This document shows positions 2,681-58,815 of a stretch of DNA of 64,000 nt, piece by piece. The notes under the pieces were generated by a model, which saw only the letters and a list, made by a program, of their open reading frames with translations, was not told where the DNA came from and made no database searches. Source of the DNA: Clostridiales bacterium (lineage in GTDB: Bacteria; Bacillota; Dehalobacteriia; UBA7702). The position numbers were made by a program, and so were the translations under genes. Numbering within the stretch: position 1 is the stretch's first letter; each line of letters opens with the position of its first letter. The stretch is from positions 45,346 to 109,345 of the forward strand of contig JAXGQI010000001.1 of assembly GCA_040766525.1 (NCBI GenBank), in the 5' to 3' direction.

Positions 2681-2694
2681 CTTTATATCCCCAT

Positions 2695-8625: not shown

Positions 8626-8644
8626 ATCAACATAACATCGTGCT

Positions 8645-23777: not shown

Positions 23778-23809
23778 CGTGACTTATCCTTTCCATAAGA
23801 AAGTGTCGT

Positions 23810-37108: not shown

Positions 37109-38135
37109 TCAAGAAACGACCCGGTTTTTCCCACTCTTTTTGGCGTCATACAATTTCATATCGGCAGCATGGATCAGGGCCGTTATTTCCTCTCCCGCAT
37201 ATTGCTTTACGCCGCCACTGATGGTGATCTTTAATCCGGGCTCAAAGCAATGATTTTCGATAGACTGTCGGATCCTTTCCCCAATCATGGACGCCATCTC
37301 AAGATCCGTATTTGAGAAAACTACGAGAAATTCTTCGCCACCGTACCTGCCGACAAGATCACTCTTCCTGATTTTGCTCTGAATGATCCCTGCAATTTCA
37401 ACAAGGACCCGATCTCCGAAGATGTGCCCTTTTGAATCATTCACTTTTTTAAAATCGTCAATATCAAACAGCGCCACTGCCAAAGGCTCCTTTGAATGAT
37501 TTGATGCTGCGATTTCAGATTTTAAATGCTCAACGATCGTGCTGTGATTGCTGATTTTCGTGAGACCGTCAAGAGCGGATTGTTCCGCCAACAGCTTGTT
37601 TTTATTCTCAAGCTCCTGTTGGATCACTTTTTTTTCGGTAATATCAAAGACAATACCGGCCAAGAAAACAGGTTTACCCGTTTGATCGTATTTCGTGATC
37701 TTCCCTCTGTCATAATACCATTTATATTTTCCGCCCTTTGTGCGGATCCGATATTCTACTTCATAAACCCCTATTTTACATGTTAAGTGATCCCGCATGG
37801 CGTTCATCGTTTTTTCATAATCGTCGGGGTGGAGCTTATCCGTAAAATACTGATGGGTGACTTTTGCGGGTATCTCGGAAACTTCACTAACCCAAAGTGG
37901 TAACTTTAAGCGGATTAAATGTCACATTATTGGTCTTGATATTCCAGTACCAATGCCCCAAATTCCCGGTCCAGGCATATTCTAATCTCGCTTCCTGTTC
38001 CTTTTCTTGTAGGAGTTGCTGATTCATCACTTCCAATTCATCCACGAGAAGAAGAAACAGCTCGTCTCTGGAAAGATCATCATACTTCACCGTTAATACC
38101 TCCTCAATCTGCCATCCACGGTTATTGATCCGCAT
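37109..38135 (-). pseudogene. PAS-GGDEF diguanylate cyclase (GGEEF), one frameshift near 37860
   Basis: PAS N-terminus in ORF 37887..38135, the remainder in ORF 37109..37807 (RYGGEEFLVVF). Confidence 0.65.
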
Positions 38136-40611: not shown

Positions 40612-40732
40612 TTCTTCTCCTCCTTCTCAGAAACTTTCATCCGGTCACAACGACCTTGGGCCCGCACGACTTACCCTTCATTCACAATCTCCGAAATCTT
40701 CCGCAACAGTTTCCCTAAACCCTGAATAAACT

Positions 40733-43548
40733 CTAGCTGCAAAGCCCCGATTTCCCCTCATTTTCCTCTTCCAGGGCTTTTTGCATATGAACCTCCAAAT
40801 CATACAATGATTTTGCCCCGATGCTGCCGGAACTGCTTTTGATTTTATGGATCATTTGCGCAGCATCGGAGAATCGTTTTTCTCTAATGGCAAGAGACAG
40901 TTGTTCCGAAATATCCGCGTTCTCTTCAGCGTACACCCGCAATATTTGCTGGTATAAAGCGAGATCGCCGCCCAGGTTTCTTTGCCCGACAATGAGATCC
41001 AAGATTTCAGCCTCTTCATCCTACTTTGCTTTTCTTCCAGAATTGCCCGGACTGTTTCAATCAAATGGTCGGGATCAAAGGGCTTGCTGATATAATGATG
41101 GATTCCACATTGCTCGCATTTTTCCTTAACCCCTAAGATCACATCCGCCGTCATCGCAATGATGGGAACCCGATCCGAGATTTTCCTGATTTCCGCAGCT
41201 GCTTCATACCCATTCATCACCGGCATATGCAAATCCATTAAAATCAGGTCGATCTTATCCTTGTTTTCTTGATAGAGTTGAACTGCGGTTTTCCCTTCCG
41301 ACGCAAGCATGACCTCAAGACCGATCTGGTGCAAAAGCGCCTCCACAAGCATCTGATTCGTTTTATTGTCCTCCACGACCAAAACGCAATGGGGCAGTTT
41401 GGGCTTGACGCTATGACCCTCCGCAGCTGCGGCTATTTGTGTTGCAGCAACGGCCTCCTGCTTGAAAATATCCAGGATACCGTTAAATAGAATCGATGGA
41501 ATGATCGGTTTACCGATGCCGATTTCAACGCCGTTTTCATCCAATCTGTCAAACAAATCTTCCCGCATCATGGGAAGGAGCATCACAATCTTCGGTTTTT
41601 TAATGATGTTTTTATTATTCCGAATGGATTTTACAAATGCATAACCACCTTCAACAGGTGTTTCATAATCGACAATCATTAAATCGAAAGGTTTTGCAAA
41701 TTTACCGTCGGCAGCTTCCAACATGCTGACGGCACTTACCGGTGATGTTGTCAGTTCACAATCCATACCGAAGGCGCCGAGATAGCTTTCGATCATATTC
41801 ATATTGGAGCCGGTTTTCTCTAAAACAAGCGTCCGCACATTTTTAAAATGATCCCGGGACACATGCTTCTTCTCGTTTTCTTCTTTTACACGGTCTACCG
41901 GGAGAGAAAGCTGAATGACAAAAGTCGAGCCTTCCCCTTTCGTGCTGTAAACCTGGATTTCCCCGCCCATCATCTCCAATAGATTTTTCACGATGGACAA
42001 CCCCAAGCCGGTGCCGCCAAAACGCCGATTGATACTGATATCCCCTTGCGTAAAGGGTTCGAAAAGATTTTTGACCTGTTCTTCGGACATGCCAATACCG
42101 GTATCTTTGACCGTGAACGCCAAATGATATTGATCCGATTCTTTGGCAACCAGCTGAACATTAAGGGTTACTTCTCCGGCCGTCGTAAATTTCACGGCAT
42201 TACTCAAGATATTGAGCAGGATCTGTTCAATCCGTTTCGCGTCCCCGAAAAACCAATTGGGAATCAGCGGATCTTTTGTGAGCTTGAAACCGATTTCCTG
42301 TTCTTCAATTTTATAGGAAATAATATTGACAACATCCTGAATGCTCTGATCCAAACTGAAGGATGTGACCTCCAGCTCAACCTTCCCGGCTTCTATTTTA
42401 GAGAAGTCCAAGAGATCATTGATGATACTGAGCATATTGGTAGACGCCTGGGTGATGCGATCAATATACATTTTTTGCGTCAGGGTAATATCGGTCTTCT
42501 TTAATAAATAAGACAAACCCGTAATGGCATTGAGCGGCGTCCTGATCTCATGGGACATGCGGGCCATGAAGTTTGATTTAAAGTTATTCGCATCTTCCGC
42601 CTCTCGTTTCGCATTTTCCAAATCAGCCTGAATCCGCTTGCGCTTGCCAACTTCCTTCTTCAAACGGGCGATCCAGTAGAAGGATACCGCAAGCACAAGA
42701 ATAACCAAAGACCCGACGATAACAAGTACTTGAATAATGGCACTGTAATCCGGCTCTGTATCCAGATCAATCCATCTATTATTGATCTGGATAATTTCTT
42801 CTTCGGTAACAGTGTCCAGCGATTTATTCAAAATACTGATTAACTCGGGCCAATCTTTACGAACAGCAAAATACAAGGCCTGCTGTATCTCCGCCTCAAA
42901 GGCAACAAATTTCAAATTGGTTAAACCGTTTGATTTGATCAAATAATTGGTTGTGGCAAGATTGCCGACAAAGGCTTTTTCCGTACCGTTGGCGACGGCG
43001 GTGAGAGCAGCTTCTACGGAATCATATAAGCTGAGATTGATATCGGGAAAAGAAAGGAGATAGCTGTGATGGGAACTGTTTCGTTGCACCGCAACCGCCA
43101 AGCCCTCCAGATCTTCGATGCCTTTGATCTCCGTTTCCGTATCTCGCGTAACAATGACTCTTTTAAAATAGTAATACGGCTCCGAAAAAAGGAAAACCTG
43201 TTCTCTCTCTTCCGTTTTGGAAACAGCCGGCAAAACATCAATATTCCCTGCCAGCGCCTGATCATAAGCCTCCGGCCATGTCAACCCCTCGACGACCTCA
43301 AATTGCAGGCCGGTTTTATCACTGATCAAGGCAAGATAATCCGTAACGATACCTTTATAATCGCCATCTTTATCAATAAACTCAAAGGGCACAAAATTCG
43401 GATCAACACCAAGAAGAATGACCGGATGTTGCTCCATAAAAGCAAGCTCCTCTTTTGTCCAGTCGATACGACTGTCAATCGCATAGCCGGCAAAGGGGGT
43501 GGTCAACAAAATAATCATGCTTAAAAACAGTGTTAGAATCTTACCCAT
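40733..43548 (-). CDS. hybrid sensor histidine kinase: periplasmic SBP_bac_3 solute-binding sensor, TM, HisKA, HATPase, REC, REC, Hpt (Hpt in a shifted frame)
   Basis: H-box RMSHEIRTPLNAITG, G-box GTGLGLSIVK, two receiver domains, and an Hpt domain (HKIKSSSGSIGA) in ORF 40733..41002 after a frameshift near 40990. The start is placed at MGKILTLF. Confidence 0.75.
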
Positions 43549-43693
43549 ACTATCGCCTCCCAGAAAACATAACCCAATGGATGGCATGATCGGACAGCGA
43601 TGGCGCTTCAACCGCCGGATTTATTTATGTGTGCACATGGCTTTAAGGCACATCTTTCCGCAAATGGGACCCACTTCCGGGATTGCCATTGCG

Positions 43694-44294: not shown

Positions 44295-45343
44295 TCAAAG
44301 GGAAAAAGAACTGCCACTGGAAACAATTTCAAATGCCGTCTTTTTCAAAACACAATCCAAACTGTTTTCCAGCGTTTCCGTTTTATTGGTTATGATTCTT
44401 GAGGGACAACCTCCGGGACAATAGGCATAATACGGACATTGCACGCAGGATTCGCGTTCTTCACGACCGGTCAAGGCGATCTGGCGGATCGGGCCTTCAT
44501 GGATATTGCCCATCGCATATTCCTCCCGGTCAATCAAAGAGCCGCAGGGATAGACCGAACCCTCCGGCAATACCACATAGGATCGCCCACAGGAAGCATA
44601 ACAATAGTTTTTGCTGCAAGAGGGGCAAGAAAGTCTTCTTTTGGCCTCCTCAATCTCACGAATGGAGATCTTGACCCCGGTACTTTCACGCATGAAGCCT
44701 CGCTTCTCTGATGGAGCCGAAATAAGGCGGTTCGTAACGCTTCGGCTCCCGGCGCATGGAGCGAACAAAGACTCCCGGCCCGCTCTCCGGCAAAGCGAAT
44801 CAAATCCAAACCGATCCCTTTCACATTGCCGAGATAGACACTAAAATCCACCAGTTCGGGAAGACGTTCAACATTCTCCGCGGTAACGACGCTGTTAATA
44901 TTGATATTGATCCCGGCCTGGGCTAATTTCCGGATCCCGTTCACAGCCGATTTCGTTCCGCCTCTGAGCATTTCATTCACTTCGGGCGGTCCGTCCAAAC
45001 TCACGCCGACAGCGATCTGCATTCTCTTGATCTTGGCCGCAATCTCTTGGTCGATCAGGGTTCCGTTCGTCTGTAATTGGAACTGAACATCATAACCATG
45101 CCTCCGGATATATTCATCAATGCGGCAAATCAGGGCATAGTTTAGCAGCGGCTCGCCCCCGGCAAATTGGATCTTTAGCGGCGTATCCCCAAAATACTCC
45201 AAGACTTTGACGGCTGTGGGAAAGTCCATATCATGCTGCTGTTTCCTTGTGTCGGCATAACAATATTTACACTTGAGATTGCAGCGACCACTTGTCCATA
45301 AAACGATCAGTATTCTTTCTTTGCTCATAGATTGATTACGCAA
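44295..45343 (-). pseudogene. radical SAM / SPASM-domain enzyme (anSME / AhbD-NirJ / peptide-maturase-like); one frameshift near 44760
   Basis: CNLKCKYC radical SAM motif and GGEPLL motif (ORF 44534..45343); SPASM Cys clusters CPSCSKNYCYASCG, YPCGSL and CVQCPYYAYCPGGCP (ORF 44295..44768). Confidence 0.7.
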
Positions 45344-46373
45344 TAATTTCCTTCACTTTGTCTTCGATGAGGTCCATACTCAACAACGAATCTTCAAAGG
45401 GTCTCCTTCTCATACGGTGGGGCAATACATACGTTGCCGCTTCCTTTAAATCTTCCTTGCTGACGAAATCCTTCATATTATAGGCGGCAATCGTGAGAGC
45501 AGTTTTGATCATCACGATATCCGCCCGGTGCCCATCCACGCCGAAAGACATCGATATTTTGGCAGCGGTTTCCAATAGCTTATCATCAAATACAACTTGG
45601 GGCAAAAGCTCGGTCGCTTCCATGATTATTTTTGCCAGTTTTTCCTGCTCAAGACTGTAAGACTCTTTGAACTCATCGGCATTTTTTTCAAAGGCAAGGC
45701 GCCTTCTGATAACTTCGGCCCGCTGGGAAGTTTCATTTTCCCCAAGGACATCGACGACCAAACCAAAGCGGTCGATCAACTGCGGCCGCAAGTCTCCCTC
45801 TTCGGGGTTCATCGTGCCCACTAAGGTAAATTTGGCGGGATGGGTAAAGGAGATGCCTTCCCTTTCAATAAAGTTGACCCCCATCGCTGCGGAGTCCAAA
45901 AGGATATCCACCACATGATCGTCCAACAAATTGATTTCATCCACATATAGAATATTGCGGTTGGCCTGGGCCAAAATACCGGCCTCAAATTTCTTTTCGC
46001 CTTTTTTGATTGCCTGCTCAATATCGAGGGTACCCACTACCCGATCTTCCGTTGCGCTGATCGGCAAATCCACCACTTTCATCTTCGTTTGCAGGATTTG
46101 GTGGGGCAACCCTCCGGTAATGATCTTATAACAATCGTCACAAGCCTGCTCCGGATCATGGGGATTGCAGGAGAATTTGCAGCCTTCGATCTGATCCCGT
46201 TCCGGCAAGAGATCGGCCAAGGAGCGCACGGCAGTCGAGTTCGCCGTCCCTTTTTCTCCTCGGATCAAAACGCCGCCTAAAGACGGATTGATGATATTCA
46301 GTATCAAAGCAAGCTTCATCCGCTCCTGCCCAACAATCGCAGTGAAGGGATAAATTTTCTTTTTCAAATTCAT
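45336..46373 (-). CDS. chlI: ChlI/BchI-like AAA+ chelatase ATPase subunit with a Walker A Lys to Asn substitution (GEKGTANST)
   Basis: [31 protein letters not shown], sensor/arginine-finger regions conserved; 345 aa. Confidence 0.8.
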
Positions 46374-46401: not shown

Positions 46402-47133
46402 TTATTCGGCTTTTTTGCAGAGTTTCACTCCGATATAGAGTAAAATCAAAAAATATCCGATCATAATTAACGGGTGGACCCACATGTTGATGAACAAATC
46501 GCTGTCCCGACGGATCGCAATACTGCTTTGCGTCAAAGGTAATATCCAGATCAGTTCTTTTAAGATCATCGGCATTCTGTCAAGGGGGAAAAAGGTGCCG
46601 CACAAAAAAGACATCGGCGTAATAATAAAATTCTGGAATTTGCTCATATCGGCATGGGATTCAATAATAATCCCGATCATAAAACCCAATGCCGAAAATA
46701 CCAGGCAATTCAAAACGACCATCAAAGACGCATATAAATCAAACTGAATATCCGCTCTGAAAATTAAACAAATCACGATGATTAATGCCGCCGCATACAT
46801 CCCTCTTAGGGCCCCGGCGGTAATTTTACCGATCGCGAAGGAACCCATATTGATCGGCGCCGTCATAAACTCTTCAAAGGTCTTATCATAGGTGCGGGAG
46901 ATATTGATATTATTTGCGATCGTCCCAAAACTTGTGGTCATGGAGCTCATGGCGATAATACCGGGGATCACGAAACTAAGATAACTGGACCCGTTAACGA
47001 CGGTGCTCCCGCCAATCCCCCAGCCAAAAGCAATCAAATAGAGCATCGGCGCGACCAAGAGACCCAAAGTAATCCCCCAAAACCGATTGCTGAATATAAT
47101 CCATTCATACCATAATATCGACAAAACTTTCAT
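46402..47133 (-). CDS. ABC-2 type transporter permease
   Basis: 6-TM ABC-2 family fold; translationally coupled to the ATPase at 47135 (a 1 nt gap between the two genes). Confidence 0.7.
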   Translation of the reverse strand: MKVLSILWYEWIIFSNRFWGITLGLLVAPMLYLIAFGWGIGGSTVVNGSSYLSFVIPGIIAMSSMTTSFGTIANNINISRTYDKTFEEFMTAPINMGSFAIGKITAGALRGMYAAALIIVICLIFRADIQFDLYASLMVVLNCLVFSALGFMIGIIIESHADMSKFQNFIITPMSFLCGTFFPLDRMPMILKELIWILPLTQSSIAIRRDSDLFINMWVHPLIMIGYFLILLYIGVKLCKKAE

Positions 47134-47134
47134 T

Positions 47135-47974
47135 TCAATCTCCTACTCTCTTATTGGTCAGCATAATGAATGTATCTTCCAAGTTACTTGGCCGGATATT
47201 GACGGTGGCATTGATCGTTGCCTCTTTTTCCAAAGCAGATTCTCTATCTTTAAAGAACAAGATCTTCGTTTCACCATCCTCGAAGCTTTCCAAGACAAAA
47301 GACCCGAATTTCTCGACCAAATTTTTCGGCGTATCCAGTTCAACAATTTTCCCCTGATCCATAAAGCCGACGCGGTTACACAATACTTCCGCTTCTTCGA
47401 TATAATGGGTCGTCAGGATTACCGTCATTCCATCCTTATTGAGGCCCTTCATCAGATCCCACAATTTTCTTCTTACGGAAGCATCCAAACCTACGGTCGG
47501 CTCATCCATCAATAATACTTCTGGACGATGCAACAATGCCCGGGCGATCATCAGTTTCCGCTTCATGCCCCCGGAAAAGGTTTTTACCTTGTCATTTCTT
47601 CTTTCGTATAAATCAATATAATGGAGAAGCTCGTCAATCCTCTCGTTCGCCGCCTCCTTTTTCATCCCGAAGAGTTTGGCATGAAGGGCAAGGTTTTGCC
47701 TTGCGGTCATATCCCACTCGAGATTGATATGTTGGGGCACGATACCGATCTTGGATTTGACCTGGGTTTCATTGCGGTCCAAGGGCACGCCCCCAATCAC
47801 GATCGTTCCCGAAGTCGGCTTTGTGAGCGTGCTCAACATCCGCACCATGGTGGTTTTCCCGGCGCCGTTGGGACCCAACAAACCAAAAAACTCGCCTTTC
47901 TCGATCCGCAAGCTCAGATGATTGACTGCAACCGTGGTTTCATATTCTTTTAATAAATCCGTGATTTCAATCAT
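47135..47974 (-). CDS. ABC transporter ATP-binding protein (ABC-2 exporter partner)
   Basis: Walker A GPNGAGKTT, signature FSGGMKRKL, Walker B LLMDEP. Confidence 0.8.
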   Translation of the reverse strand: MIEITDLLKEYETTVAVNHLSLRIEKGEFFGLLGPNGAGKTTMVRMLSTLTKPTSGTIVIGGVPLDRNETQVKSKIGIVPQHINLEWDMTARQNLALHAKLFGMKKEAANERIDELLHYIDLYERRNDKVKTFSGGMKRKLMIARALLHRPEVLLMDEPTVGLDASVRRKLWDLMKGLNKDGMTVILTTHYIEEAEVLCNRVGFMDQGKIVELDTPKNLVEKFGSFVLESFEDGETKILFFKDRESALEKEATINATVNIRPSNLEDTFIMLTNKRVGD

Positions 47975-48000: not shown

Positions 48001-49917
48001 TTATAAAGACAATGCTACTGCCGCCACAACGCTCTCCGCACGGAGCTCTTCGATCTGGAAACGGTCCGCATTCATTGCCTTTGCCAGGTCTTCCGCCATT
48101 TTTAATTTGATAAAATTTTGATCCGTATCAATAACGATGGACTTGATTTGTTCCGCTGCGATCTTTTCGGCCGCACCCAATGCGTCGTCAAAAGCATCGA
48201 TCCCTTTTTGGCTATAGGTGGCTCTGCCATCGGTAACCACCACCACAACAGGAAGCATGTCCTTATCTTTGATCATTCCCGCTTTCACAACTTCATACGC
48301 CATATCGAGGCCTGCCGCAAGCGGCGTTCTGCCCCCGGTCGGCAAAATGCTCAGTTTTTTCTCCGCCAGTTCTACGCTCCGTGTAATCCCCAACAAAAGC
48401 TCGGCGCAATCATTGCGGAAAGCAATTAAGCCGACTTTATCCCTTTTTTGATAAGCGTCGTTCAAGAGGGATAAAATAGCGCCCTTTACGGCAATCATCC
48501 GTTTGTTCGCTCCCATAGAGCCGCTGGCGTCAACAACAAAAATAATGGTATTACCGGTCCGTTTCTCTCTCACTTTTACCCGAATATCCGAGCGGTGAAT
48601 CGCCACCGCCATGCCGTTTTTATCCCGGAACATGTGCTTAGGGGCCGCGGCCCGCAAAGTAGCGTCAATCGCGATATCCCGGATCTGATCATTGGCAGGG
48701 TACGCATAGCGAACATACCTTCCCTGCATACTGGAGGTATTCACCAAGCTGCGTTTTCCGCTGCCATGCTGGATCGTCTCGTTTCTTTTTTCCGCTAACC
48801 AACGGGAAACGATAAAGGGTTCTCCCGGATCGTCAACGGTTTCCTCCGCTTCTCCCGCTTGCATTTGCTCGTCAAAATCCTGGTCTTGCGGCGTCGTATC
48901 GGGTTCCTCGCAAAGCATTTCCTCTTCATCCGTCAAAGGATCTTCCGGGACCTCCGGTTCTTCAGGCGGCGTCTGCTCCCGGTTGTCATCGTTTTGATCC
49001 GCCGGCAAATCGGGATCATCATTTTGCGTGGGATCATCCTGCTGGTTGTGCTCCTCTTCCTGCTGCTCTCTCGACCGATGCGGCAAAGCGTATTTTGCGG
49101 CCTCTTTAATGTCGGTAATATTCAATACCGTTCTTTTATCAAGGGCGGCGATGGCTTTCGCCGCCTCGATGATGACGAGCTCCGCCCGATGCCCCGCACA
49201 ATTTGCTTCTTTCGCAATAGAGGAGGCCAACTGCATCGCATTAGGCGTAACGATAATTTCCGCCAGTCCTTCTTGGGCGGCGGTAATTTTTTCCCGCAGT
49301 GCTTTCGTTTCCTCCTGCCACTTTTTAATAAAAAGCAAAGGATCCCGTTCAAAGGCAATCCGCCTTCGGATGATCTCGACGCGTTTCCTGATATCGGTCT
49401 CCCCTTCTACCTGGACATAGAGACCGAAGCGGTCTAAAAATTGCGGGCGCAAACCGCCTTCTTCCGGATTCATGCTCCCGGCCAGAATAAATTTAGCGGG
49501 ATGACTATAGGAAATACCTTCCCTTTCAACGATGTTGACCCCGGATGCTGCCGACTCTAAAAGCGATTTTACAATATGGTCGCTCAAGAGATTCACCTCG
49601 TCCACATAAAGCAGGTTCCCATGAGCTTGATACAGCAATCCCGGCTCAAAGCGTTTTTCGCCGTATTTAACGGCATATTCAAAATCGATATTCCCAATCA
49701 GCCGGTCTTCCGTAATATTTAACGGCAGATCGACCAATGTGATAGCGGGAGCAATAGAACATATCCCTCGAACAAGCGTAGATTTTGCCGTTCCTTTTTC
49801 ACCGCTGATCAAAACACCGCCGATTTTGGGGTTGACGATATTCCAAATCAAAGCATTTTTTATTTCATCTTGCCCCAAAACCGCAGTAAAGGGGAAGACG
49901 GTATTTGGCTTTTGCAT
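48001..49917 (-). CDS. chlD: ChlD/BchD-like chelatase subunit: AAA+ module, acidic/Pro-rich linker, C-terminal von Willebrand A domain
   Basis: GEKGTAKST Walker A; long D/E/P-rich linker; vWA MIDAS (VVDASGSM). Confidence 0.8.
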   Translation of the reverse strand: MQKPNTVFPFTAVLGQDEIKNALIWNIVNPKIGGVLISGEKGTAKSTLVRGICSIAPAITLVDLPLNITEDRLIGNIDFEYAVKYGEKRFEPGLLYQAHGNLLYVDEVNLLSDHIVKSLLESAASGVNIVEREGISYSHPAKFILAGSMNPEEGGLRPQFLDRFGLYVQVEGETDIRKRVEIIRRRIAFERDPLLFIKKWQEETKALREKITAAQEGLAEIIVTPNAMQLASSIAKEANCAGHRAELVIIEAAKAIAALDKRTVLNITDIKEAAKYALPHRSREQQEEEHNQQDDPTQNDDPDLPADQNDDNREQTPPEEPEVPEDPLTDEEEMLCEEPDTTPQDQDFDEQMQAGEAEETVDDPGEPFIVSRWLAEKRNETIQHGSGKRSLVNTSSMQGRYVRYAYPANDQIRDIAIDATLRAAAPKHMFRDKNGMAVAIHRSDIRVKVREKRTGNTIIFVVDASGSMGANKRMIAVKGAILSLLNDAYQKRDKVGLIAFRNDCAELLLGITRSVELAEKKLSILPTGGRTPLAAGLDMAYEVVKAGMIKDKDMLPVVVVVTDGRATYSQKGIDAFDDALGAAEKIAAEQIKSIVIDTDQNFIKLKMAEDLAKAMNADRFQIEELRAESVVAAVALSL

Positions 49918-49925: not shown

Positions 49926-52900
49926 TTATCCCAAATCCTCGAGATCTCCTTCCATTTCCATATAAATTTTCTTGAGTTTTTCAACTTTATCTTCTGATGC
50001 ATTCCACATGCCGCGCTGATTCGCTTCAAGCAATCTCTCGGCTACATTGTGCAAGGCCCAGGGATTGACTTCCCGCATCCAATCCGTGTTCTCCTTATCG
50101 AAAGCGTATCTTTCGGCAATAGAGTCATACATCCAATCGTCGATCACATTGGTCGTCGCATCCCAGCCGAAGGCGAAATCTACCATGGCGGAAATCTGTT
50201 TGGCGCCGCGATAGCCGTGCTTCTTTAGGCCCTCGATCCACTTGGGATTATTGACTCTGGCCCGCATAACCCGGGAAGCTTCCTCATGCAGCGTCAAAGT
50301 TTCCACATGATCCGTGTCCGAGGTGCTGGGAACATAGGCCGGTTTTTGTGAGCCGCTGTGGGTCGTAATCGCCGCTACCATACCACCGAAATAATTATAA
50401 AAATCATCGCTGTCCAGCATATCAAATTCTCTGGTTGATTCATTTTTAACGGCGACGCTGACTTTTTTCATCCGCAGCGCAAAGGTTTCCGGAACCTTAT
50501 CTCCATGCACATGCTTCCCATAAACATGGCAACCCCAGGTCGTGTAGACCTTCCCCAAATCGGTTACATCATTCCATTTTTTGCTTTCCACAACATTATT
50601 GACTCCGGCGCCATAAGCTCCCGGCGCGTCGCCAAAGACCCGATACAAGGATTGGGTCGTTGCGGTTTCAAGATCAATACCTTGTTTGACCAGTTCTTCA
50701 ACTTCTTCCGTTACATGCTTCTTAATATAGTTCACATCATCCGTTTCATCCAGAGACGCCACCAAATTCACCGCATCTTCTACTCTCTCGATCAGATTGG
50801 GGAAAGCATCCCGAAATAATCCGGTGATTCTCAGCGTCACATCGATTCTCGGGCGGCCCAATTCCTCCATGGGGATGGCTTCAATTCCGATCACTCGATC
50901 CGTATTCCCTAACCAAACGGGACGAACCCCCAATAAATAAAAGGTCTCCGCGATGTCGTCGCCATAGTTCCGCATTGCTTCCGTAGCATAGACCAGGATG
51001 GATACGCTTTGAGGATAAACGCCGTCATCATGCAAAGACCGTTCAATCAATTGATCCGCCAAAATTTTCCCAATCTCCCAAGAAGAACGGGAGGGCATCG
51101 CGCCGGGATCAACGGAATAAAAATTCCTCCCCGTAGGCAAAATTCCCGCATTGCCTCTTGTGGGCGCGCCGGAAGGCCCCGGCGGAACAAATTTGCCGGA
51201 AACACCGCCGACCAGCCGATCCATTTCGTCCGTCATCCGCTGGATACGCGGTTTGATGAAGGTACAAACGAAGGTTAAACATTCTTTTAAGCGCTTCGTA
51301 CTGTTTTCCCGGTTGATTTGAAAGTCTTGGATGATACCGTCGACGGAATCCGCCGCAAAACCCTTTCCTTCCAGCGCGAGAAAAATATTTTCCGCAACTT
51401 CATCGGCTTCCCTAAGCAAAATCCCATAGGACTTGCCGTCTTGTGTCGCTGTTTCCGGATTGGCCAGCAAAGCTTCAAAATCCAGTCCCAATAAATCGCA
51501 AACGCCTTCTCTTAAAGAAGGAACTTCTCCGTTACGATTTCTGACCAGCATTTTCAGCATATTGCGATAGCGGTCGCCTTCCGGCACCATGCCGAGGATA
51601 TGGAAGCCATCGGCAATATCGCAGGCCTGCACTCTTGTGACCCAAGTATGCATCTTTTCGATACATTCATCGGGATCATTTGCCATCTCCTCATCGGTAA
51701 GACCGATGTCATCGTGCAAATTGATCTTTTTCCCAAGTTCCAATATCTCCTGCTGAACTAGGGGCAGCTTTTTCGGATCCGCAGCCTTGACATGATAATA
51801 CTGCTTCATCAATTCATCCATCTTCGCCAACTCATCGTACACGCCGCTTTCGACCATGGAGGGAATCATATGATCGACCAAAGTCGCATAGGTGCGTCTT
51901 TTCGCCTGGGTACCTTCTCCCGGCGCATTGATGATATAGACATAGAGATGCGGAATCGTTCCGATACAAATATCGCTGAAACAATCCTTGGACAACCCCA
52001 CTTCCTTGCCGGGGAGCCACTCGATTGTTCCATGGGTGCCGACATGAATGATCACATCCGCCTGGAAGACGTCTTCCACCCAACGATACACGCCGATATA
52101 TTGATGGGGACAGGGAATATCCGTGCTATGATACATTTCTTCCGCTTTTTCTTCAAAAGCCCGGGGCGGCTGCAAACCGATAAAAATATTCCCGTTCAAG
52201 ATCCCGGGGACTAAAAGCTGCTGATCCACCGCCATAAAATCCCCCACGGGCTCGTCCCAATATTTCACCAGGTTTTCTTTAATGCGAGGAATAAAAGGAT
52301 CATACCATTGGCGATACTTTGCTTCCGTTACCGTATCGATACTCTTGGCCAGCATATTCTCGGGAGACATCCAGCGCCCGTCATTCGTGAGCCCTTTCGT
52401 GATGGTATCGATAATCTCTTTACCGTCGGCAAAATGATATTGGGTATGAATCCCGGCTGCTTCCATCCTGGTAATCAATTTACAAACCGAAACCGGCGTA
52501 TCAAGACCCGCCGCACCGCCGATATTATCGTTGCGGGGCGGATTGTTATGCAGAATAATGGCAACCTTCTTCTCGCTGTTGTCTTTATGGCGCAATATGG
52601 CCCATTTGATCCCGATCGACACGATGTTTTTAATGCGATCCGCAATGGGAGCGGCATATCTTCTGGTACCCAATTCCGTTTCTTCCAATTCCGTTGTGGC
52701 AAAGGGATACGTAATAACTTGGCCGTCAAATTCCGGTTGGAATACGCTCCAACTCAAGGACAAGCTGTCGATCCCTTTCACCGATATTTCCCATTCTTCA
52801 TACGATTGCATGGTGGTCATCAACTGGAACACCGGTACGCCAAACTGTTCAAAAATACTGTTTTCCTGGGGTTTGGAACCATCTCCGGGGGCGGAAATGA

Positions 52901-53648
52901 TGCTCAAACTGTGCCCGGTCGTATTGATGATGGCGTCCACGATCGGCCGGTCTTCAGACAACATATACTGTTGCAAAGTCGCCTTGATCCCCAGACAACC
53001 GAGATCCGCATTGGGCAGCAACTCGGCATAGATACATAGGGGCATGGCATTTTGCTTCTTCATTTCCCGGATCAAGGCATCAATATGTAAGCGATTCTTT
53101 TTTTGCATGAGCATCACATTCATAATGATGCCAATCACCGGTTGATTACTGTTTTTTATCTTCGCTATATAGGCCGCTTCATCCACCGTCTCCTCGTCGG
53201 GATCATAAATCCCACTCCATTTAGGGCAAACCGGCAGATCCAGGGGAACATCCAATCCTGCGAACTGATTGCCGATCCACTTGATGAGATTCAGCATATT
53301 ATTGAGCCCGTCGGATTTAAAATAGCGAAACATGGTTTTGAAATCATCGTGCATGATCTGACATTGCGGAAATAATTCAGCGACTTCTTCTTCGATTGTC
53401 GTATTGATAAAGAATTTCTTTTTGCCCTTGAAGCGCTCATAATATTTCAAAAAGCTTTTGAAAAATGACAGGGAGCCGAAAATATTGATAAAAACAAAAT
53501 CAGCTTTTTCCGTCGCCTTCCGCACATGCGGCATAGATCTCTTCATCGTCATCGAGCTCCGTGGTATTGAATAGATCAAGATGATACATGCCCGGATATT
53601 CTTCCTCCAGCTTACTCTGAGCCTCCTTAAAGGTAAGGAAGGGCTCAT
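49926..53648 (-). CDS. cobN: CobN/ChlH-family large chelatase subunit (class I ATP-dependent cobaltochelatase-like)
   Basis: 1240 aa intact ORF with CobN/Mg-chelatase H similarity (HVGTHGTIEWLPGKEVGLS). Confidence 0.85.
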   Translation of the reverse strand: MSPSLPLRRLRVSWRKNIRACIILIYSIPRSSMTMKRSMPHVRKATEKADFVFINIFGSLSFFKSFLKYYERFKGKKKFFINTTIEEEVAELFPQCQIMHDDFKTMFRYFKSDGLNNMLNLIKWIGNQFAGLDVPLDLPVCPKWSGIYDPDEETVDEAAYIAKIKNSNQPVIGIIMNVMLMQKKNRLHIDALIREMKKQNAMPLCIYAELLPNADLGCLGIKATLQQYMLSEDRPIVDAIINTTGHSLSIISAPGDGSKPQENSIFEQFGVPVFQLMTTMQSYEEWEISVKGIDSLSLSWSVFQPEFDGQVITYPFATTELEETELGTRRYAAPIADRIKNIVSIGIKWAILRHKDNSEKKVAIILHNNPPRNDNIGGAAGLDTPVSVCKLITRMEAAGIHTQYHFADGKEIIDTITKGLTNDGRWMSPENMLAKSIDTVTEAKYRQWYDPFIPRIKENLVKYWDEPVGDFMAVDQQLLVPGILNGNIFIGLQPPRAFEEKAEEMYHSTDIPCPHQYIGVYRWVEDVFQADVIIHVGTHGTIEWLPGKEVGLSKDCFSDICIGTIPHLYVYIINAPGEGTQAKRRTYATLVDHMIPSMVESGVYDELAKMDELMKQYYHVKAADPKKLPLVQQEILELGKKINLHDDIGLTDEEMANDPDECIEKMHTWVTRVQACDIADGFHILGMVPEGDRYRNMLKMLVRNRNGEVPSLREGVCDLLGLDFEALLANPETATQDGKSYGILLREADEVAENIFLALEGKGFAADSVDGIIQDFQINRENSTKRLKECLTFVCTFIKPRIQRMTDEMDRLVGGVSGKFVPPGPSGAPTRGNAGILPTGRNFYSVDPGAMPSRSSWEIGKILADQLIERSLHDDGVYPQSVSILVYATEAMRNYGDDIAETFYLLGVRPVWLGNTDRVIGIEAIPMEELGRPRIDVTLRITGLFRDAFPNLIERVEDAVNLVASLDETDDVNYIKKHVTEEVEELVKQGIDLETATTQSLYRVFGDAPGAYGAGVNNVVESKKWNDVTDLGKVYTTWGCHVYGKHVHGDKVPETFALRMKKVSVAVKNESTREFDMLDSDDFYNYFGGMVAAITTHSGSQKPAYVPSTSDTDHVETLTLHEEASRVMRARVNNPKWIEGLKKHGYRGAKQISAMVDFAFGWDATTNVIDDWMYDSIAERYAFDKENTDWMREVNPWALHNVAERLLEANQRGMWNASEDKVEKLKKIYMEMEGDLEDLG

Positions 53649-53691: not shown

Positions 53692-54921
53692 TTATTCAGC
53701 CGTAAAGGGCATAATCAAGAAATGTTCAAAGCTGTCAACGGTAATAGTATCAAAGGAATCCGGATAGAAGAACTCCGCCATTTCCACATATTTCCCATCG
53801 ATATTATGATAAGAATTCCAATAATCGTCCGTAATCTGGAGAACATTGCCTTCAGCCATACAGGAAAGATCTGCCAACACCGGAAGCTGATCAATGATGG
53901 ACTGAATATCCGCCCCATATTTCGGCATCCCTCTGTTAATGAAGATATCCGCATCACTCATGCGAGCATAGAACTCTTCCGCCGTAATGGTTGTAACCCC
54001 ATCAACACCAACGCCGATATCATCAAACACATATTCCCCACCGCAATCCCGGACCATTTGCGCGCTGCTCGATCCGGCATTCTCAACATAAATCGTGCCA
54101 TTGACAACAATGCCCCAACCGACTTTTACTTTGGATTCTGCATCAATCCCGGCAGTCGCTTCCATGATTCCGTCAATATTGGCCATGGCAGCATCGAAAT
54201 ACTCTTCCGCTTCAATTTCTAAGTTATAGAAGGCGGCAAAAAACTTCACCCATTCCATGATTCCCCGGTAATCACTTTCGGAACTGGAACCGTCAAATAC
54301 ATAAGGAATACCGGCTTCATCCAGCATTGCCATCAATTCAACCTGTTCTGTGCCCATCCCCGCATTGGTGAAAACCACATTGGGAAGCAAAGCCTGTACG
54401 ATCTCATAATCATAACTGGTCGACATGGTCGTATTGCTGCCGACGTCTACGATCTGGCCGCTTTGCATCCGGGTACGCATCGCATCAAAATCCCAATCCT
54501 CTTCGGTTGCCCGCACGCCGACGATGCTATCATATAAATCTTCATCAGAGAAGGCTCTCAAATAGCCGACTTGGGTCGTGCTGGAAGAGATCACATTGCT
54601 GATCGGAATGGTAAGCGCCGTCAGATCGGCATATTCTTCAGGAGCGGTTTGCCCTTCTTGCAAAAGCAGTACCTGGCTCCCCTGGCCATCCGTAACCAAT
54701 TTCATACCGTCTTCAAGATATTCAATACTAAAATTCGTTGCATAAGATAATTCCATCGTACTGCCTGCCGGATACTTGGCAATAACATCTTCCACACTGC
54801 CGCCATATACGGAATCCCCACTTACGTTCACGGCGTCTTCCGCACAACCGGTGAATAAGACGGCAGTCAAACCCACCATGCATAAGATGGCCCCAAGGCA
54901 TTTAAATAACCTTTTTTTCAT
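53692..54921 (-). CDS. btuF: BtuF/FecB-like periplasmic substrate-binding lipoprotein (corrinoid/siderophore type ABC)
   Basis: Lipobox LFTGCAED, class III SBP fold similarity; 409 aa. Confidence 0.7.
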   Translation of the reverse strand: MKKRLFKCLGAILCMVGLTAVLFTGCAEDAVNVSGDSVYGGSVEDVIAKYPAGSTMELSYATNFSIEYLEDGMKLVTDGQGSQVLLLQEGQTAPEEYADLTALTIPISNVISSSTTQVGYLRAFSDEDLYDSIVGVRATEEDWDFDAMRTRMQSGQIVDVGSNTTMSTSYDYEIVQALLPNVVFTNAGMGTEQVELMAMLDEAGIPYVFDGSSSESDYRGIMEWVKFFAAFYNLEIEAEEYFDAAMANIDGIMEATAGIDAESKVKVGWGIVVNGTIYVENAGSSSAQMVRDCGGEYVFDDIGVGVDGVTTITAEEFYARMSDADIFINRGMPKYGADIQSIIDQLPVLADLSCMAEGNVLQITDDYWNSYHNIDGKYVEMAEFFYPDSFDTITVDSFEHFLIMPFTAE

Positions 54922-54953: not shown

Positions 54954-56080
54954 TTAATTTTTATTTAATGCAATTGCAACCATCGTAACGATAGTTACAA
55001 AACGATCCAGCATAAAATCGATGCAAGCCTCTGGTTCCGTCCAAGACCCTTCTTGCGCTTGCCATTCGATGGAATAGGTTGCCGCGATCTGCCCCAGAAT
55101 CATCTCTCCTCCGATCACCGTTTCGTTAAGCGAGAGTAAGCCCCATTGTAATTGATCCAGCAAATGTACGAATAATGAAGTATAGATAACCATTTCTTTA
55201 TTGCCGTCGAGCAAATGGAGCTGATGGACAAAGTCAGCCTTGGCCATGTTCACATCCGGGAACTGATCCAATTTATCGCAAAACGCTTTCTCGGCAACTT
55301 GGTATCTTTTCAAGCGTGCCCCAATACTGTGCTGGCTTTTTGCCGATAAACCCATATGGAGATGCAGAGATTCCTTGACCGCCGCCATCACCGTCTTGCC
55401 GATCAATTCTCCCAATTTCCCATGTTTCCCCGCATATGTCAGAACATTGTCGGATTCCCCGTTTGCAATAATCATGACATTATCGGTTCCGGATCCGGTG
55501 GCAATGCCGGAAGAATACAAACTGCCTGCGATCAACTCTGAAGAGCCGCCGTTTTTGCTTCCGTTGCCGTAACGATGGCCCGGGCCATACAACCGGGGGT
55601 CATATCGGCATTCGCAAAAACCATCATATTGATCGTTCCCGGCCGTAAGCTGACGCTGCTGCCATGCTTTTCATAACTTGTCGCCGCTTCACCCACACGA
55701 CCTCCGTTCACTTCAAGGCTGGCGGTCACGATTGCGGTAACCGTCAACACATCGTATGTCATGCTCTTGATCACGGCGCTTTCCATCGATACGATCGTCG
55801 CCATATAGGCCACAGATTCATAATCAAGCCCCAAATCTTCTTGAACAAATCTCTTGATTTTCTCTTCAGCGCCGGGCTGGCAATATTCGCAAGGCATCCC
55901 GGGGCCGGGATTCACATCGCGGTTAAATACCGCCGTCAGATCTTCACGATAGCCGCCATTATGCATGGAAGTGCTCATCACCTTGCGTTTTCCCTCAAAA
56001 GGAACGACGATACAGCGCCTAAAACGATGAATCGGATCCCCCGTGGCTAATACATCAATCATCATGTGCAATCCCTCCAT
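54954..56080 (-). pseudogene. cbiZ: CbiZ-like adenosylcobinamide amidohydrolase with an extra C-terminal domain; one frameshift near 55560
   Basis: The N-terminal half (ORF 55532..56080: MSTSMHNGGYREDL...) and the C-terminal half (ORF 54954..55592: DNVMIIANGESDNVLTYAGKHGKLGELIG...) are in different frames. Confidence 0.55.
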
Positions 56081-57286
56081 TTATTGTTGTTTGTCATTTA
56101 AGATCATCCCGATCAATGTATGCAGATTTGAACAACATACAACTTTGGCCGCTGCCGCGCCGAAGCGTCTGCTCATTTCCTCCGCAGGACAAAGGGAGAA
56201 TACTTTTTTGCCGCAAGCAACCGCATTGTTTAATAAATCCAAGTTGCCCTGATTATTATTCCCCAAGGGGAAACCCGTATCGATCACATGATCGACCGAA
56301 GCGATTTTATCCGCCGCGATTGCCAAACTTTCCGCACTGATATTATGAAACGCATGCTCCTCGATCATTTCGCAATTCAGTGCCTTGCCAATGTGGAGAT
56401 CAATATCATTGCTGTGCAAAACACCGCAGTACATCCCCAATCCGGCGCGGGCCAACGCCCGATAAACGCTGACGCCGGTTCCGTTCCCGCCGGTGACAAA
56501 AACTTCCGGTTTTTGGGGACTGTTAAATTCCAAACTACCCATCAATTCATTGTAATGAGCGCCTTCAATCGCATAAAGTTTTTGGATAGTTCCGGCTTGA
56601 ATGATTTCCTCCGGGGTTCCCTGAGCCACAATCTTCCCGTTTTGAACCAATAAAATCGTCTGGCAGCCCTTGATCGCCAAATCGATATCGTGTAAGGATA
56701 AGACCACGGTGATCCCCTTTTTCACACACAATTCCTGGAGGATCCGGATCACTTCCACTTTGTGCTTGACATCGAGATGGCTTGTGGGTTCATCCAAAAC
56801 AATTAGTTCCGGCTCTTGCACAAGGGCACGGGCGATCATGATCTTCTGCTTTTCCCCATCGCTTAGCTCAGAATAATACCGATCTTTCAGCCATAGGGCA
56901 TCCGTCGCCGCCAAGGCCTCCTCGACAATTTGAATATCGTGCTCCGTCAGCTTACCGAGATAATTGGTGTGGGGATAGCGGCCCATTGCGGCGATCTCAA
57001 AGACGGTGAGAAAGCCCAAGGATAACTGTTCCGTCAAGACGATGGCCAGTTTCTTCGCCAAATCCCCTTTATTAACCTGAAGCAAATCGGTCTCGTTCAC
57101 ATAGACCGTTCCGTTTACCGGCGCAAGCAAGCCTGTCAATGTTCTGAGAATCGTCGATTTCCCTGCGCCGTTCGGGCCCAAAAGACAAATCAGCTGGCCC
57201 CGGATCCCATTGATGTTGACATTCTCCACAACAACTTTCTTCTCATAACCAACGTCCAGGTTTTTTGCGACAATGACTTGATTCAT
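56081..57286 (-). CDS. btuD: BtuD/FecE-like ABC ATP-binding protein with a ~150-aa C-terminal extension of unknown function
   Basis: Walker A GPNGAGKST, LSDGEKQK signature, ILDEPTSHLD; 401 aa. Confidence 0.8.
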   Translation of the reverse strand: MNQVIVAKNLDVGYEKKVVVENVNINGIRGQLICLLGPNGAGKSTILRTLTGLLAPVNGTVYVNETDLLQVNKGDLAKKLAIVLTEQLSLGFLTVFEIAAMGRYPHTNYLGKLTEHDIQIVEEALAATDALWLKDRYYSELSDGEKQKIMIARALVQEPELIVLDEPTSHLDVKHKVEVIRILQELCVKKGITVVLSLHDIDLAIKGCQTILLVQNGKIVAQGTPEEIIQAGTIQKLYAIEGAHYNELMGSLEFNSPQKPEVFVTGGNGTGVSVYRALARAGLGMYCGVLHSNDIDLHIGKALNCEMIEEHAFHNISAESLAIAADKIASVDHVIDTGFPLGNNNQGNLDLLNNAVACGKKVFSLCPAEEMSRRFGAAAAKVVCCSNLHTLIGMILNDKQQ

Positions 57287-58341
57287 AATTCATTCTTCTT
57301 TCTTAATAACAGATAAACGACGATCGGGGCCCCGATCAATGATGTAATCGCGCTAAGCGGCAATTCGATCGGGGATAACAGCATTCTAGCGCCAAAGTCA
57401 CATAAAGCTGTCATAAAGGCCCCGGCAACGATAACGCCCGGTATCAAAATGCGGTTGTCGGATGTTTTGAATATGATCCTCACCATGTGCGGCACGGCAA
57501 GCCCCACGAAGGAGATCGGTCCGGCAAAAGCCGTGATGCCGGCAGTGAGAATACTGGAGATGATGATAATCACGACCCGAAACCGCTTAATATTCACCCC
57601 CATAGAAATCGCATAATTCTCTCCGAACAACAACGCATTCAAAGGTTTACTGAGGAAAAATGATAGGAGCACAAAAGGCCCCGCCAAAAAATAGAGATAT
57701 TTAACTTGTTCCCATGAGATACCGGAAAAGCTCCCCAATGTCCACATAACATAACCTGCGATCTGTTCCTTATCGGCAAAGGAAGTCAAAATACTCGTCA
57801 TCGCGCTGCAAATAAAGCCTGCCATAATCCCGATAATCAATAAGGTCGTCACATTCTTGACTTTTTTTGCGGCTAAAACCACAACGGCCATGATCAACAT
57901 CGCCCCCATGAAAGCGCCGAGGAACAGCACCATGGGGCTTGCATTGTTAAAACCAAAAGTGTAACCGCCCAAAATAACCAATCCGACAAATAAGCTGGCC
58001 CCGGAAGAAATCCCCAGTACATAAGGTTCCACAATCGGATTTCGAAAGAAAATCTGCAATAACAGCCCGGAAACAGATAAACACGCGCCGCCGATAATCG
58101 TCGCCAAAACCCGCGGCAACCGGATATCCATCACGATCGACGTAAATACCGGGTTCCCGACATCCATACCCAAAAGTATTTTCACGACCTTGGCGAAACT
58201 AATATTTACAGAGCCGATCGATATCCCCAAAATGCAGATAAAGACCGTCATTGCCGTTATGATCGTGATCATCAGCGCATAACCGCATTTTCTTTTTGCC
58301 ATCTCTTTCATGCTTTCTCTCTTTCCAGCAAACAAATCCAT
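57283..58341 (-). CDS. btuC: BtuC/FecCD-family ABC permease
   Basis: FecCD permease fold with about 9-10 TM helices; overlaps btuD by 4 nt. Confidence 0.8.
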   Translation of the reverse strand: MDLFAGKRESMKEMAKRKCGYALMITIITAMTVFICILGISIGSVNISFAKVVKILLGMDVGNPVFTSIVMDIRLPRVLATIIGGACLSVSGLLLQIFFRNPIVEPYVLGISSGASLFVGLVILGGYTFGFNNASPMVLFLGAFMGAMLIMAVVVLAAKKVKNVTTLLIIGIMAGFICSAMTSILTSFADKEQIAGYVMWTLGSFSGISWEQVKYLYFLAGPFVLLSFFLSKPLNALLFGENYAISMGVNIKRFRVVIIIISSILTAGITAFAGPISFVGLAVPHMVRIIFKTSDNRILIPGVIVAGAFMTALCDFGARMLLSPIELPLSAITSLIGAPIVVYLLLRKKNEL

Positions 58342-58399: not shown

Positions 58400-58487
58400 A
58401 ATATTTATTTTGCTTTTGAATTCATATTACGGTATTGCCAAAAAATGCAAAAATAGCCACTACCCTACCCAGGAGAACTATCAAATC

Positions 58488-58620
58488 CGGCAGGTCTACC
58501 GACTGAACTTCATCCTACTCGGAAACCTTCCCATGCCCAAAGAGCACAGTGGTCATTATCCTTTCGTCCGTATCACGGTTGCTGGGACAGTACGGGATTT
58601 CCCGTTTCCCTATTAAGCAA
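58488..58620 (-). ncRNA. cobalamin (B12) riboswitch
   Basis: The minus strand reads AATAGGGAAACGGGAAATCCCGTACTGTCCCAGCAACCGTGA ... GACCACTGTGC (B12 box) ... GGGAAGG ... GATGAAGT ... AGTCGGTAGACCTGCCGG. This matches the remembered cobalamin riboswitch consensus. Confidence 0.8.
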
Positions 58621-58815
58621 ATGCACCGAATCACTATTTTTTTACAATTATAAACAAGTGTCCAAAAAAAATCAAGTCTTATTTGCTCTTTTTTTCAATA
58701 AGGCGGCGAAAAATGCAAATAATCAAACGCAGGTAAAATTTCACCACCCGCTAATGAGCCCCAGGAGATACGCTTCAATACGCAGGGGAAATCGTCTGCT
58801 GTTAATTCCAAATCC

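Follow-up and report, generated by a model that had tools for sequence, protein, structure and literature searches.

What does a radical S-adenosylmethionine (SAM) enzyme do at the end of an operon for the uptake of corrinoids, next to the subunits of a CobN-type chelatase? The question is raised by a gene on the minus strand, within positions 44295..45343, of a 64,000-nucleotide (nt) stretch of contig JAXGQI010000001.1 from a Clostridiales bacterium, hereafter the window. The first-pass annotation of this DNA had described the gene as the terminal radical SAM/SPASM gene of a chelatase operon and proposed either a tetrapyrrole-modifying enzyme similar to AhbD or NirJ or a maturase of ribosomally synthesized and post-translationally modified peptides (RiPPs). 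Here, we propose that this locus belongs to a still unnamed subfamily of radical SAM/SPASM enzymes that is fixed in corrinoid-scavenging modules of anaerobes under cobalamin riboswitches and acts on the imported macrocycle, a reading to which we assign a probability of roughly one half. In our best reading, the radical SAM enzyme would act on corrinoids or tetrapyrroles as a partner of the chelatase. The link to tetrapyrroles is supported by conserved gene context and not by membership in the AhbD or NirJ families, and of the two functions proposed earlier it is this link, without the family assignment, that is retained.

The evidence carrying this proposal is the neighbourhood of the gene across genomes. 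We defined the chelatase-associated SPASM subfamily as proteins of ~330-350 amino acids (aa) that share at least about 31% identity with the window protein and are co-located with CobN/ChlI/ChlD, and the window copy belongs to it, sharing 55-63% identity with its nearest homologs and lying 7 nt downstream of a ChlI gene. A wider sample, comprising one genome per species and at least 80 loci that span 55% to 23% identity, was searched by tblastn with the proteins of the window operon. Among the matches listed, every locus with at least about 31% identity and enough flanking sequence has CobN and/or ChlI/ChlD, and most also have CbiZ and Btu genes; at the ~60 SPASM loci with 29% identity or less, none of the CobN/ChlI/ChlD, CbiZ or Btu partners was found. 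Co-location of the radical SAM gene with chelatase genes is near-obligate, since it holds for about 20 independent loci, L018 being the single exception. The gene, at 31-63% identity, lies within 10 kb of CobN and/or ChlI/ChlD in L001, L003-L014, L016, L019-L023, L025 and L087. Several phyla are represented among these linked loci, which stem from Firmicutes, Fusobacterium, Treponema, Neomoorella, an actinomycete metagenome-assembled genome (MAG), Desulfobacterota, Selenomonas, an Accumulibacter-labelled MAG and Methanothrix, and include Desulfarculaceae, Desulfobulbus and Desulfocarbo.

Across these loci the membership of the partner set is constant and the gene order is shuffled. Dehalobacter sp. 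DCM (L001) has BtuC, BtuD, CbiZ, CobN, ChlD, ChlI, the radical SAM gene, an ABC ATPase gene and an ABC-2 permease gene, and in Acetobacterium (L003, L004) ChlI and the radical SAM gene are followed by a second CobN and the ABC and ABC-2 genes. The order in Dethiosulfatibacter (L005) is BtuD, ABC, ABC-2, ChlI, CobN, ChlD, radical SAM and CbiK, and in Phosphitispora (L006) BtuF, BtuC, BtuD, radical SAM and CobN are followed, after further genes, by ABC, ABC-2, ChlI, CN-hydrolase and CbiZ; two metagenome contigs (L007, L008) have an order identical to that of the window. Uptake in the module falls to BtuFCD, joined in diderms by a TonB receptor, and remodelling to CbiZ and, in some cases, a CbiR-like TIM barrel or a CN-hydrolase; a class I chelatase, CobN-ChlI-ChlD, is also encoded, and an ABC-2 exporter is frequent. 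No partner of the radical SAM gene is more constant than the chelatase genes; the ABC-2 pair is absent from the Fusobacterium and Treponema modules, and CbiZ was not found by tblastn in L005, L019, L021 and L087. A cobalamin riboswitch heads the module in Phosphitispora (L006), Neomoorella (L014), the actinomycete MAG (L016) and Fusobacterium (L011), and riboswitch control is present in the window and in at least four other lineages.

Other neighbours recur as well, namely TonB-dependent receptors in diderms, extra BtuF-like proteins, the CN-hydrolase and an AP_endonuc_2 TIM barrel. The latter, a xylose-isomerase-like protein of ~330 aa, occurs in four modules (L010:4690-5697, L011:13855-14835, L012:13946-14899 and L020:3453-4442), where it is located directly 3' of the radical SAM gene in L010, after ChlD in L011 and L012, and between CbiZ and a BtuF-like gene in L020. 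The cobamide-remodelling phosphodiesterase CbiR is a member of the AP_endonuc_2 TIM-barrel superfamily (PMC7733943), and the neighbours reported here were matched at the superfamily level only. In the Treponema MAG, a protein combining an FGE-sulfatase domain (formylglycine-generating enzyme-like) with an fn3 domain is encoded ~6 kb upstream of the radical SAM gene (L013:2994-4262); as this was seen at a single locus, it is probably coincidental.

In the window itself, the module forms a B12-repressed corrinoid uptake and salvage operon controlled by a cobalamin riboswitch, and is in this respect more than the chelatase operon first described, although the chelatase genes and the terminal position of the radical SAM gene both hold. 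Ten minus-strand genes with gaps of at most 43 nt follow an RF00174 riboswitch in the order BtuC, BtuD, CbiZ, BtuF, CobN, ChlD, ABC-2 ATPase, ABC-2 permease, ChlI and radical SAM. The riboswitch (58472..58644, minus strand like all genes of the operon) matches the full-length Rfam model with 88.4 bits (gathering threshold 31.5) and is situated ~130 nt upstream of the start of BtuC. The uptake genes encode a BtuC-like permease of the FecCD family (57283..58341; Pfam FecCD 277 bits, best NCBIfam match BtuC NF003001 with 218 bits), a BtuD-like ABC ATPase with a C-terminal extension (56081..57286; Pfam ABC_tran 98 bits, best NCBIfam match corrinoid ABC transporter ATPase NF007082 with 223 bits) and a BtuF-like substrate-binding protein of 409 aa (53692..54921; Pfam Peripla_BP_2 60 bits), which is 55-71% identical to its equivalents in L003, L007 and L009. 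Between BtuD and BtuF lies the gene for the adenosylcobinamide amidohydrolase CbiZ (54954..56080), whose Pfam CbiZ match is divided between two frames by a frameshift at 55538.

The chelatase consists of a CobN-type large subunit (49926..53648; Pfam CobN-Mg_chel 1230 bits, TIGR02257 for cobaltochelatase subunit CobN 945 bits with a cutoff of 822), a ChlD-like AAA+/VWA subunit (48001..49917; Pfam AAA_5, AAA_lid_2 and VWA_2, TIGR02442 'putative cobaltochelatase' 686 bits, which is below the cutoff of 779) and a ChlI-like AAA+ subunit (45336..46373; Pfam Mg_chelatase and AAA_lid_2, TIGR02030 BchI-ChlI 404 bits, TIGR02442 492 bits). Two genes for an ABC-2 exporter lie between the ChlD and ChlI genes, one for a DrrA/NodI-like ATPase (47135..47974; Pfam ABC_tran 125 bits, TIGR01188 drrA 292 bits) and one for a permease (46402..47133; Pfam ABC2_membrane 83 bits). 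The known substrate of CobN is the metal-free corrinoid of the aerobic pathway. Since the window CobN scores above the equivalog threshold, a metal-free corrinoid substrate would be implied, one that early-cobalt anaerobes do not make themselves; the organism looks strictly anaerobic (pyrrolysine, radical SAM genes).

The radical SAM gene is the last of the operon. A consensus scan placed a terminator-like hairpin with a T-run ~175 nt past its stop (44121-44107, minus strand), in a scan that is weak, the number of sites being about equal to that in shuffled sequence. The next gene downstream encodes a hybrid histidine kinase and has its own promoter-like site. This kinase carries an extracellular SBP_bac_3 sensor domain (40852-43611) and belongs to a minus-strand stretch (37109-43611) that also encodes a response-regulator-PAS-GGDEF-EAL protein (38230-40611) and a PAS-GGDEF protein (37109-37807). 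A connection of these genes with the corrinoid operon was not seen, and no search was aimed at one.

As for the gene itself, the two domains noticed at first are both there, and what did not stand is the single open reading frame (ORF): the interval 44295..45343 is 1049 nt long, no multiple of three, and the domains are encoded in two frames. The radical SAM core matches Pfam Radical_SAM PF04055 with 74.7 bits (E 1e-20, cutoff 29.5), and CNLKCKYC at residues 16-23 provides the CX3CX2C motif of the superfamily as C16-X3-C20-X2-C23. The SPASM domain matches TIGR04085 with 50.3 bits (cutoff 27) and Pfam SPASM with 24.5 bits, and its complete seven-Cys signature (C243...G-X4-C262, C295-X2-C298-X5-C304-X3-C308, C326) is invariant in 36 homologs. 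Altogether, the window copy keeps all ten family-invariant Cys (CX3CX2C, CX9-15GX4C, CX2CX5CX3C and the final C); an eighth Cys in the SPASM region is present in 75% of the family members. The architecture is that of a ~340 aa protein with one SAM cluster, Cys for two auxiliary clusters and no RiPP recognition element (RRE).

The gene in this sequence is split by a +2 (equivalently -1) frameshift at 44697-44698, with the SPASM motif in another frame than the radical SAM core. The radical SAM half in frame A runs from 45328 to 44699 on the minus strand (210 codons, MSKER...ALFRLHQRSE) and aligns with intact homologs up to this point. It is followed by two bases, GC, at 44698-44697, which have no counterpart in homologs and give the reading GAG-GC-TTC, and then by the bridging region and the SPASM half in frame B, from 44696 to 44295 (133 codons and a stop, FMRESTG...SFSL), in which FMRESTGVKISIREIEE, at 44696, opens a match to homologs that lasts until the stop at 44295. 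In 19 of 19 aligned homologs, the residue aligned with the last Glu of frame A is directly joined to the residue aligned with the Phe that opens frame B. The start of the gene is likely the ATG at 45328 (MSKERILIVLWTS), in agreement with the N-termini of the homologs, and not the TTG at 45343. Read onward, frame A reaches a stop at 44534 and yields a 269-aa product that lacks the SPASM domain; this truncated product (P0002) is the sole version on record for the source assembly. Programmed frameshifting was considered and rejected, as GAG-GC-TTC has no slippery heptamer, the homologs are all single-frame and other window genes are broken too.

Whether the break is an assembly indel or a very recent real mutation was judged from the rest of the window, and we hold an indel to be the probable explanation. 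At least four genes of unrelated function are frameshifted within the 64 kb (radical SAM, CbiZ, MttB-family and VTC), and the shifts go both ways. In CbiZ, two tblastn segments meet at nucleotide 55538, where the sequence CTTCAG/AGTTG is short of one G of CAG-GAG, and the Pfam profile is divided into positions 2-138 in one frame and 138-191 in the other; CbiZ of the relatives is a single protein of 371-375 aa, with a C-terminal extension of ~180 aa that has no Pfam domain match. On the minus strand, a trimethylamine methyltransferase-like gene of the MttB family is split into 18972-19607 and 19528-20544 (Pfam MTTB positions 293-490 and 21-294), and a VTC-domain gene into 23099-23422 and 23334-23783 (Pfam VTC positions 129-230 and 2-110), both with shifts opposite to those of the radical SAM and CbiZ genes. 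Split genes in unrelated loci with opposite shifts point to a general indel problem in the assembly.

The alternative is that the frameshift is real, the radical SAM gene (and CbiZ) being a recently inactivated pseudogene in a decaying scavenging operon, which we regard as rather unlikely. It would account for two of ten operon genes being broken, neither of them in a long homopolymer, and for a radical SAM lesion that resembles a 2-nt insertion relative to all homologs, a form less typical of sequencing errors; moreover, a collection of 15 billion sequences holds the window protein solely in its truncated 269-aa form. However, the MttB-family (18972-20544) and VTC (23099-23783) genes are split as well, in the opposite direction, and the SPASM half shows no sign of decay. 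Frame B has no internal stop and keeps 28 of 28 invariant columns, which together with 37 of 37 in the N-terminal half gives 65 of 65 for the whole protein, and the ratio of C-terminal to N-terminal identity to homologs is 0.976, compared with 0.979 for pairs of intact homologs, so that there is no excess divergence. An indel-prone assembly is, thus, likelier than decay, since the out-of-frame half keeps its conservation and frameshifts occur in at least three further window genes. Either way, the gene model in the window is broken and the sequence needs polishing before its annotation can be trusted; the window copy itself adds nothing beyond a probable assembly error.

Further features were seen elsewhere in the window. 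The mttB gene at 15341-16390 (minus strand) may contain another break, the first ~180 positions of the MTTB profile being absent upstream of 16390. An in-frame UAG in the same gene (15830-15832) adjoins an Rfam PYLIS_3 element (15733-15832, 92 bits), and because of this pairing the organism probably uses pyrrolysine. A molybdenum-cofactor cluster at 407-3744 (minus strand) comprises a MOSC-domain ORF, a MoaA-type radical SAM gene, MoaC and a MoCF_biosynth protein; the MOSC ORF (407-1267) matches the MoCF_biosynth domain at positions 1-56 of 144 only, which may be a frameshift or a truncation. A c-di-AMP (cyclic di-adenosine monophosphate) riboswitch of the ydaO type (8631-8764, plus strand, 94.8 bits) is found directly upstream of a DapB-family gene (8848-9711, plus strand), a dihydrodipicolinate reductase-like gene of a kind not usually found in the c-di-AMP regulon. 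In a search with DapB, the nearest named relatives, from Christensenellaceae and other Clostridia, were at most ~50% identical.

With the frameshift repaired, the protein has 934 relatives, the closest of which are intact, 336-350 aa long and 55-63% identical, and come from Dehalobacter, Acetobacterium, Dethiosulfatibacter, Phosphitispora and many MAGs. When 1.84 billion representative proteins were searched with a profile, 892 representatives matched at E ≤ 1e-30, and no fusion to a chelatase, CbiZ or a transporter was found among the relatives in this collection. Some distant relatives (P0298, P0323, P0345, P0374 and others) are tandem arrays of 2-4 complete radical SAM/SPASM domains with lengths of 760-1320 aa, and some of these tandem fusions carry a Peptidase_MA_2 domain.

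Classification by NCBIfam and Pfam hidden Markov models (HMMs), which had been suggested as the way to choose among AhbD, NirJ, anSME and the peptide maturases, was run on both halves, on the repaired protein and on three intact homologs. It led to no named family, as neither the repaired protein nor any of the three homologs reached an NCBIfam equivalog cutoff. The scores were 105-125 bits for PapB (cutoff 340), 100-114 for DynA (cutoff 450), 106-114 for anSME (TIGR03942, cutoff 349), 84-105 for NirJ2 (TIGR04055, cutoff 500), 69-99 for the AhbD heme b synthase (TIGR04545, cutoff 500), 76-88 for AhbC (TIGR04546, cutoff 650) and 76-90 for NirJ, with NirJ, NirJ1 and NirJ2 (TIGR04051, TIGR04054 and TIGR04055) together covering 72-105 bits against cutoffs of 500-650. 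These scores do not separate the tetrapyrrole from the peptide families, and the protein appears, judged by its sequence, to belong to an unnamed SPASM subfamily about equally distant from peptide-, protein- and tetrapyrrole-acting families.

Structure gives a similar picture. An AlphaFold model of the homolog P0003 (predicted local distance difference test, pLDDT, 92.3) folds as a radical SAM core, and its closest solved folds in Foldseek are anSME and the CteB core, with template modelling (TM) scores of 0.80-0.82 at 22-25% identity; a sequence search of the PDB likewise gave generic SPASM neighbours, anSME and CteB only. With the radical SAM core beginning at about residue 10, there is no space for an N-terminal RRE domain. 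Structures of AhbD and NirJ are missing from the PDB, which biases the structural ranking and prevents it from separating the tetrapyrrole from the peptide or protein hypotheses.

The most tangible alternative suggested by these comparisons is a protein or peptide maturase of the anSME or PapB type that modifies a protein of the module (CobN, ChlD, ChlI, BtuF or CbiZ) for chelatase or uptake function. The anSME of Clostridium perfringens (anSMEcpe, PDB 4K36-4K39) resembles the family in size, in a core beginning at about residue 10, in the lack of an RRE and in a full SPASM domain with Cys able to bind two auxiliary [4Fe-4S] clusters, and is the best structural match (TM 0.80-0.82 at 24-25% identity). 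PapB, CteB and DynA share the SPASM fold, have the highest though sub-threshold HMM scores and, for the CteB core, a TM score of 0.80; in addition, the radical SAM gene is often directly beside ChlI or ChlD. We nevertheless consider such a maturase unlikely. All of its scores are far below the family cutoffs (300-450), its margin over NirJ2 and AhbD is just ~10-30 bits, the structural ranking suffers from the bias of a PDB that has no tetrapyrrole-acting SPASM enzyme, and a loose scan of the operon proteins for [CS]x[PA]xR gave four matches, none in a recognisable context. A true anSME would be expected by the first-pass annotation to have a sulfatase as its partner; the window operon and the related modules contain none, and the family is instead accompanied by CobN/ChlID, CbiZ and Btu proteins under a B12 riboswitch.

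A RiPP maturase, with a small unannotated ORF nearby as its precursor, e.g. the 21-aa ORF at ~43974, is highly improbable. SPASM enzymes are often RiPP maturases and the operon includes an ABC exporter, yet a comparison of the intergenic small ORFs within 3 kb of the radical SAM gene found none common to 20 family loci, in line with the earlier remark that no convincing precursor is nearby. The best cluster of small ORFs spanned three loci and was antisense noise, and precursor candidates sought also within conserved genes were shadow ORFs only. The 21-aa ORF does exist; it lies on the opposite (plus) strand, is rich in neither Cys nor Gly and matches nothing in related loci, its best hit (E 0.8) being in a non-family locus. 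Besides, the gene after the radical SAM gene varies by lineage (ABC-2, CobN, CbiK, CbiM, BtuF or ChlI), and the ABC-2 pair, as noted above, is missing from Fusobacterium and Treponema. With neither a precursor gene nor an RRE domain, and in a genomic context unlike that of RiPP clusters, the family differs from PapB, CteB and DynA, and the RiPP option was abandoned.

Equally remote is the possibility that the gene is an ortholog of AhbD, AhbC or NirJ in alternative heme or heme d1 biosynthesis. These SPASM radical SAM enzymes are similar in length, likewise lack an RRE domain and act on the acetate and propionate side chains of tetrapyrroles, a kind of substrate that the context of the window gene suggests, and the gene adjoins tetrapyrrole chelatase genes and has weak full-length similarity to all of them (69-105 bits). 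However, the equivalog cutoffs (500-650) exceed the scores by a factor of 5-8, and the module has no ahb or nir genes; where those enzymes serve heme or heme d1 synthesis, the partners here belong to corrinoid uptake and remodelling under a B12 riboswitch. In Dehalobacter restrictus, furthermore, NirJ1 and NirJ2 are encoded by separate genes elsewhere in the genome (Dehre_1893, Dehre_1894).

Dehalobacter restrictus also provides the anchor in the literature. In strain PER-K23, operon-2 has a cobalamin riboswitch upstream, and corrinoid starvation raised its transcripts 346-fold and its proteins 46-fold on average, while the protein Dehre_0290, a radical SAM protein with an extra 4Fe4S domain, was ~17-fold up at low corrinoid (PMC4285132). 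The radical SAM gene is listed there in the supplementary tables only, with no function given, and is absent from the main text (PMC4285132). Dehre_0290 shares the module of Dehalobacter sp. DCM and its order, CobN, ChlD, ChlI, radical SAM, ABC ATPase and ABC-2 permease, behind a cobalamin riboswitch, and is an intact protein of 347 aa in contrast to the frameshifted window copy; we infer its homology from annotation and from synteny with Dehalobacter sp. DCM (P0015). On this comparison, the window-type module corresponds to operon-2 of D. restrictus and had been described by 2015.

A second known system concerns the chelatase. HmuS is a CobN homolog that acts as a heme de-chelatase within an uptake operon, as described in 2025 (PMC12583661), and the same source states that the function of the majority of CobN-like proteins from anaerobes and archaea cannot so far be assigned (PMC12583661). 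HmuS sets the precedent that, in an anaerobe, a protein of the CobN family encoded in an uptake operon can process an imported metallo-tetrapyrrole and need not work in de novo synthesis. The window CobN differs from HmuS in passing TIGR02257 (945 vs 822 bits) and in being accompanied by ChlI, ChlD and a B12 riboswitch, and the hmu operon, unlike the window operon, has no SPASM enzyme.

Returning to the proposed corrinoid- or tetrapyrrole-acting enzyme, the radical SAM protein would supply the chemistry that is least predictable among the components of the operon, as had been anticipated when it was named the most likely source of new chemistry there. We suggest that a 5'-deoxyadenosyl radical derived from SAM would act on an imported corrinoid or tetrapyrrole macrocycle, which may be the substrate or the product of the chelatase. 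The reaction might be a small-molecule reaction at a side chain or at the ring periphery, in the style of AhbC, AhbD and NirJ, with the auxiliary clusters moving electrons, and could open the cobamide pathway to the scavenged compound at times of B12 scarcity.

Several points weigh against this proposal. By the known route, cobyric acid is reached from cobinamide or pseudo-B12 via CbiZ without a chelatase and without radical chemistry, which leaves the proposed step of the enzyme undefined. The literature search found a functional assignment or experimental data for no member of the family. PapB, DynA and anSME score slightly above NirJ2 and AhbD (100-125 vs 69-105 bits), and the enzymes with the closest solved structures modify peptides or proteins, in a PDB that has no AhbD or NirJ for comparison. 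The co-occurrence refers to the matches listed from at least 80 loci, and the exceptional locus L018 (34% identity), with ~10 kb of sequence downstream and only 1.5 kb of upstream flank, has no partner genes.

More speculatively, and with a low probability across all its variants, the SPASM enzyme and the CobN-ChlI-ChlD motor may constitute a previously undescribed anaerobic system that alters the metal state of scavenged corrinoids. Cobalt could be inserted into imported corrinoids that are metal-free or wrongly metallated or, by analogy with the heme de-chelatase HmuS, extracted. The radical SAM enzyme would perform a new radical transformation on the corrin ring or on the cobalt ligand, for example a side-chain or ring reaction that enables metal exchange, or radical adenosylation of Co(II), and the ABC-2 pump might expel a by-product.

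The early-cobalt route to B12, followed by many anaerobes, gives them no obvious use for a CobN-type chelatase. Nonetheless, such a chelatase is encoded in uptake operons repressed by B12 in acetogens, organohalide respirers, sulfate reducers, fusobacteria, treponemes and some methanogens, and the radical SAM/SPASM enzyme that is almost always beside it would mark an unrecognised chemical step in the scavenging and remodelling of corrinoids, processes that influence how cobamides are shared in gut, sediment and dechlorinating communities. With the substrate of the enzyme identified, hundreds of proteins labelled only 'radical SAM protein' would gain a function, and the SPASM family a new type of reaction.

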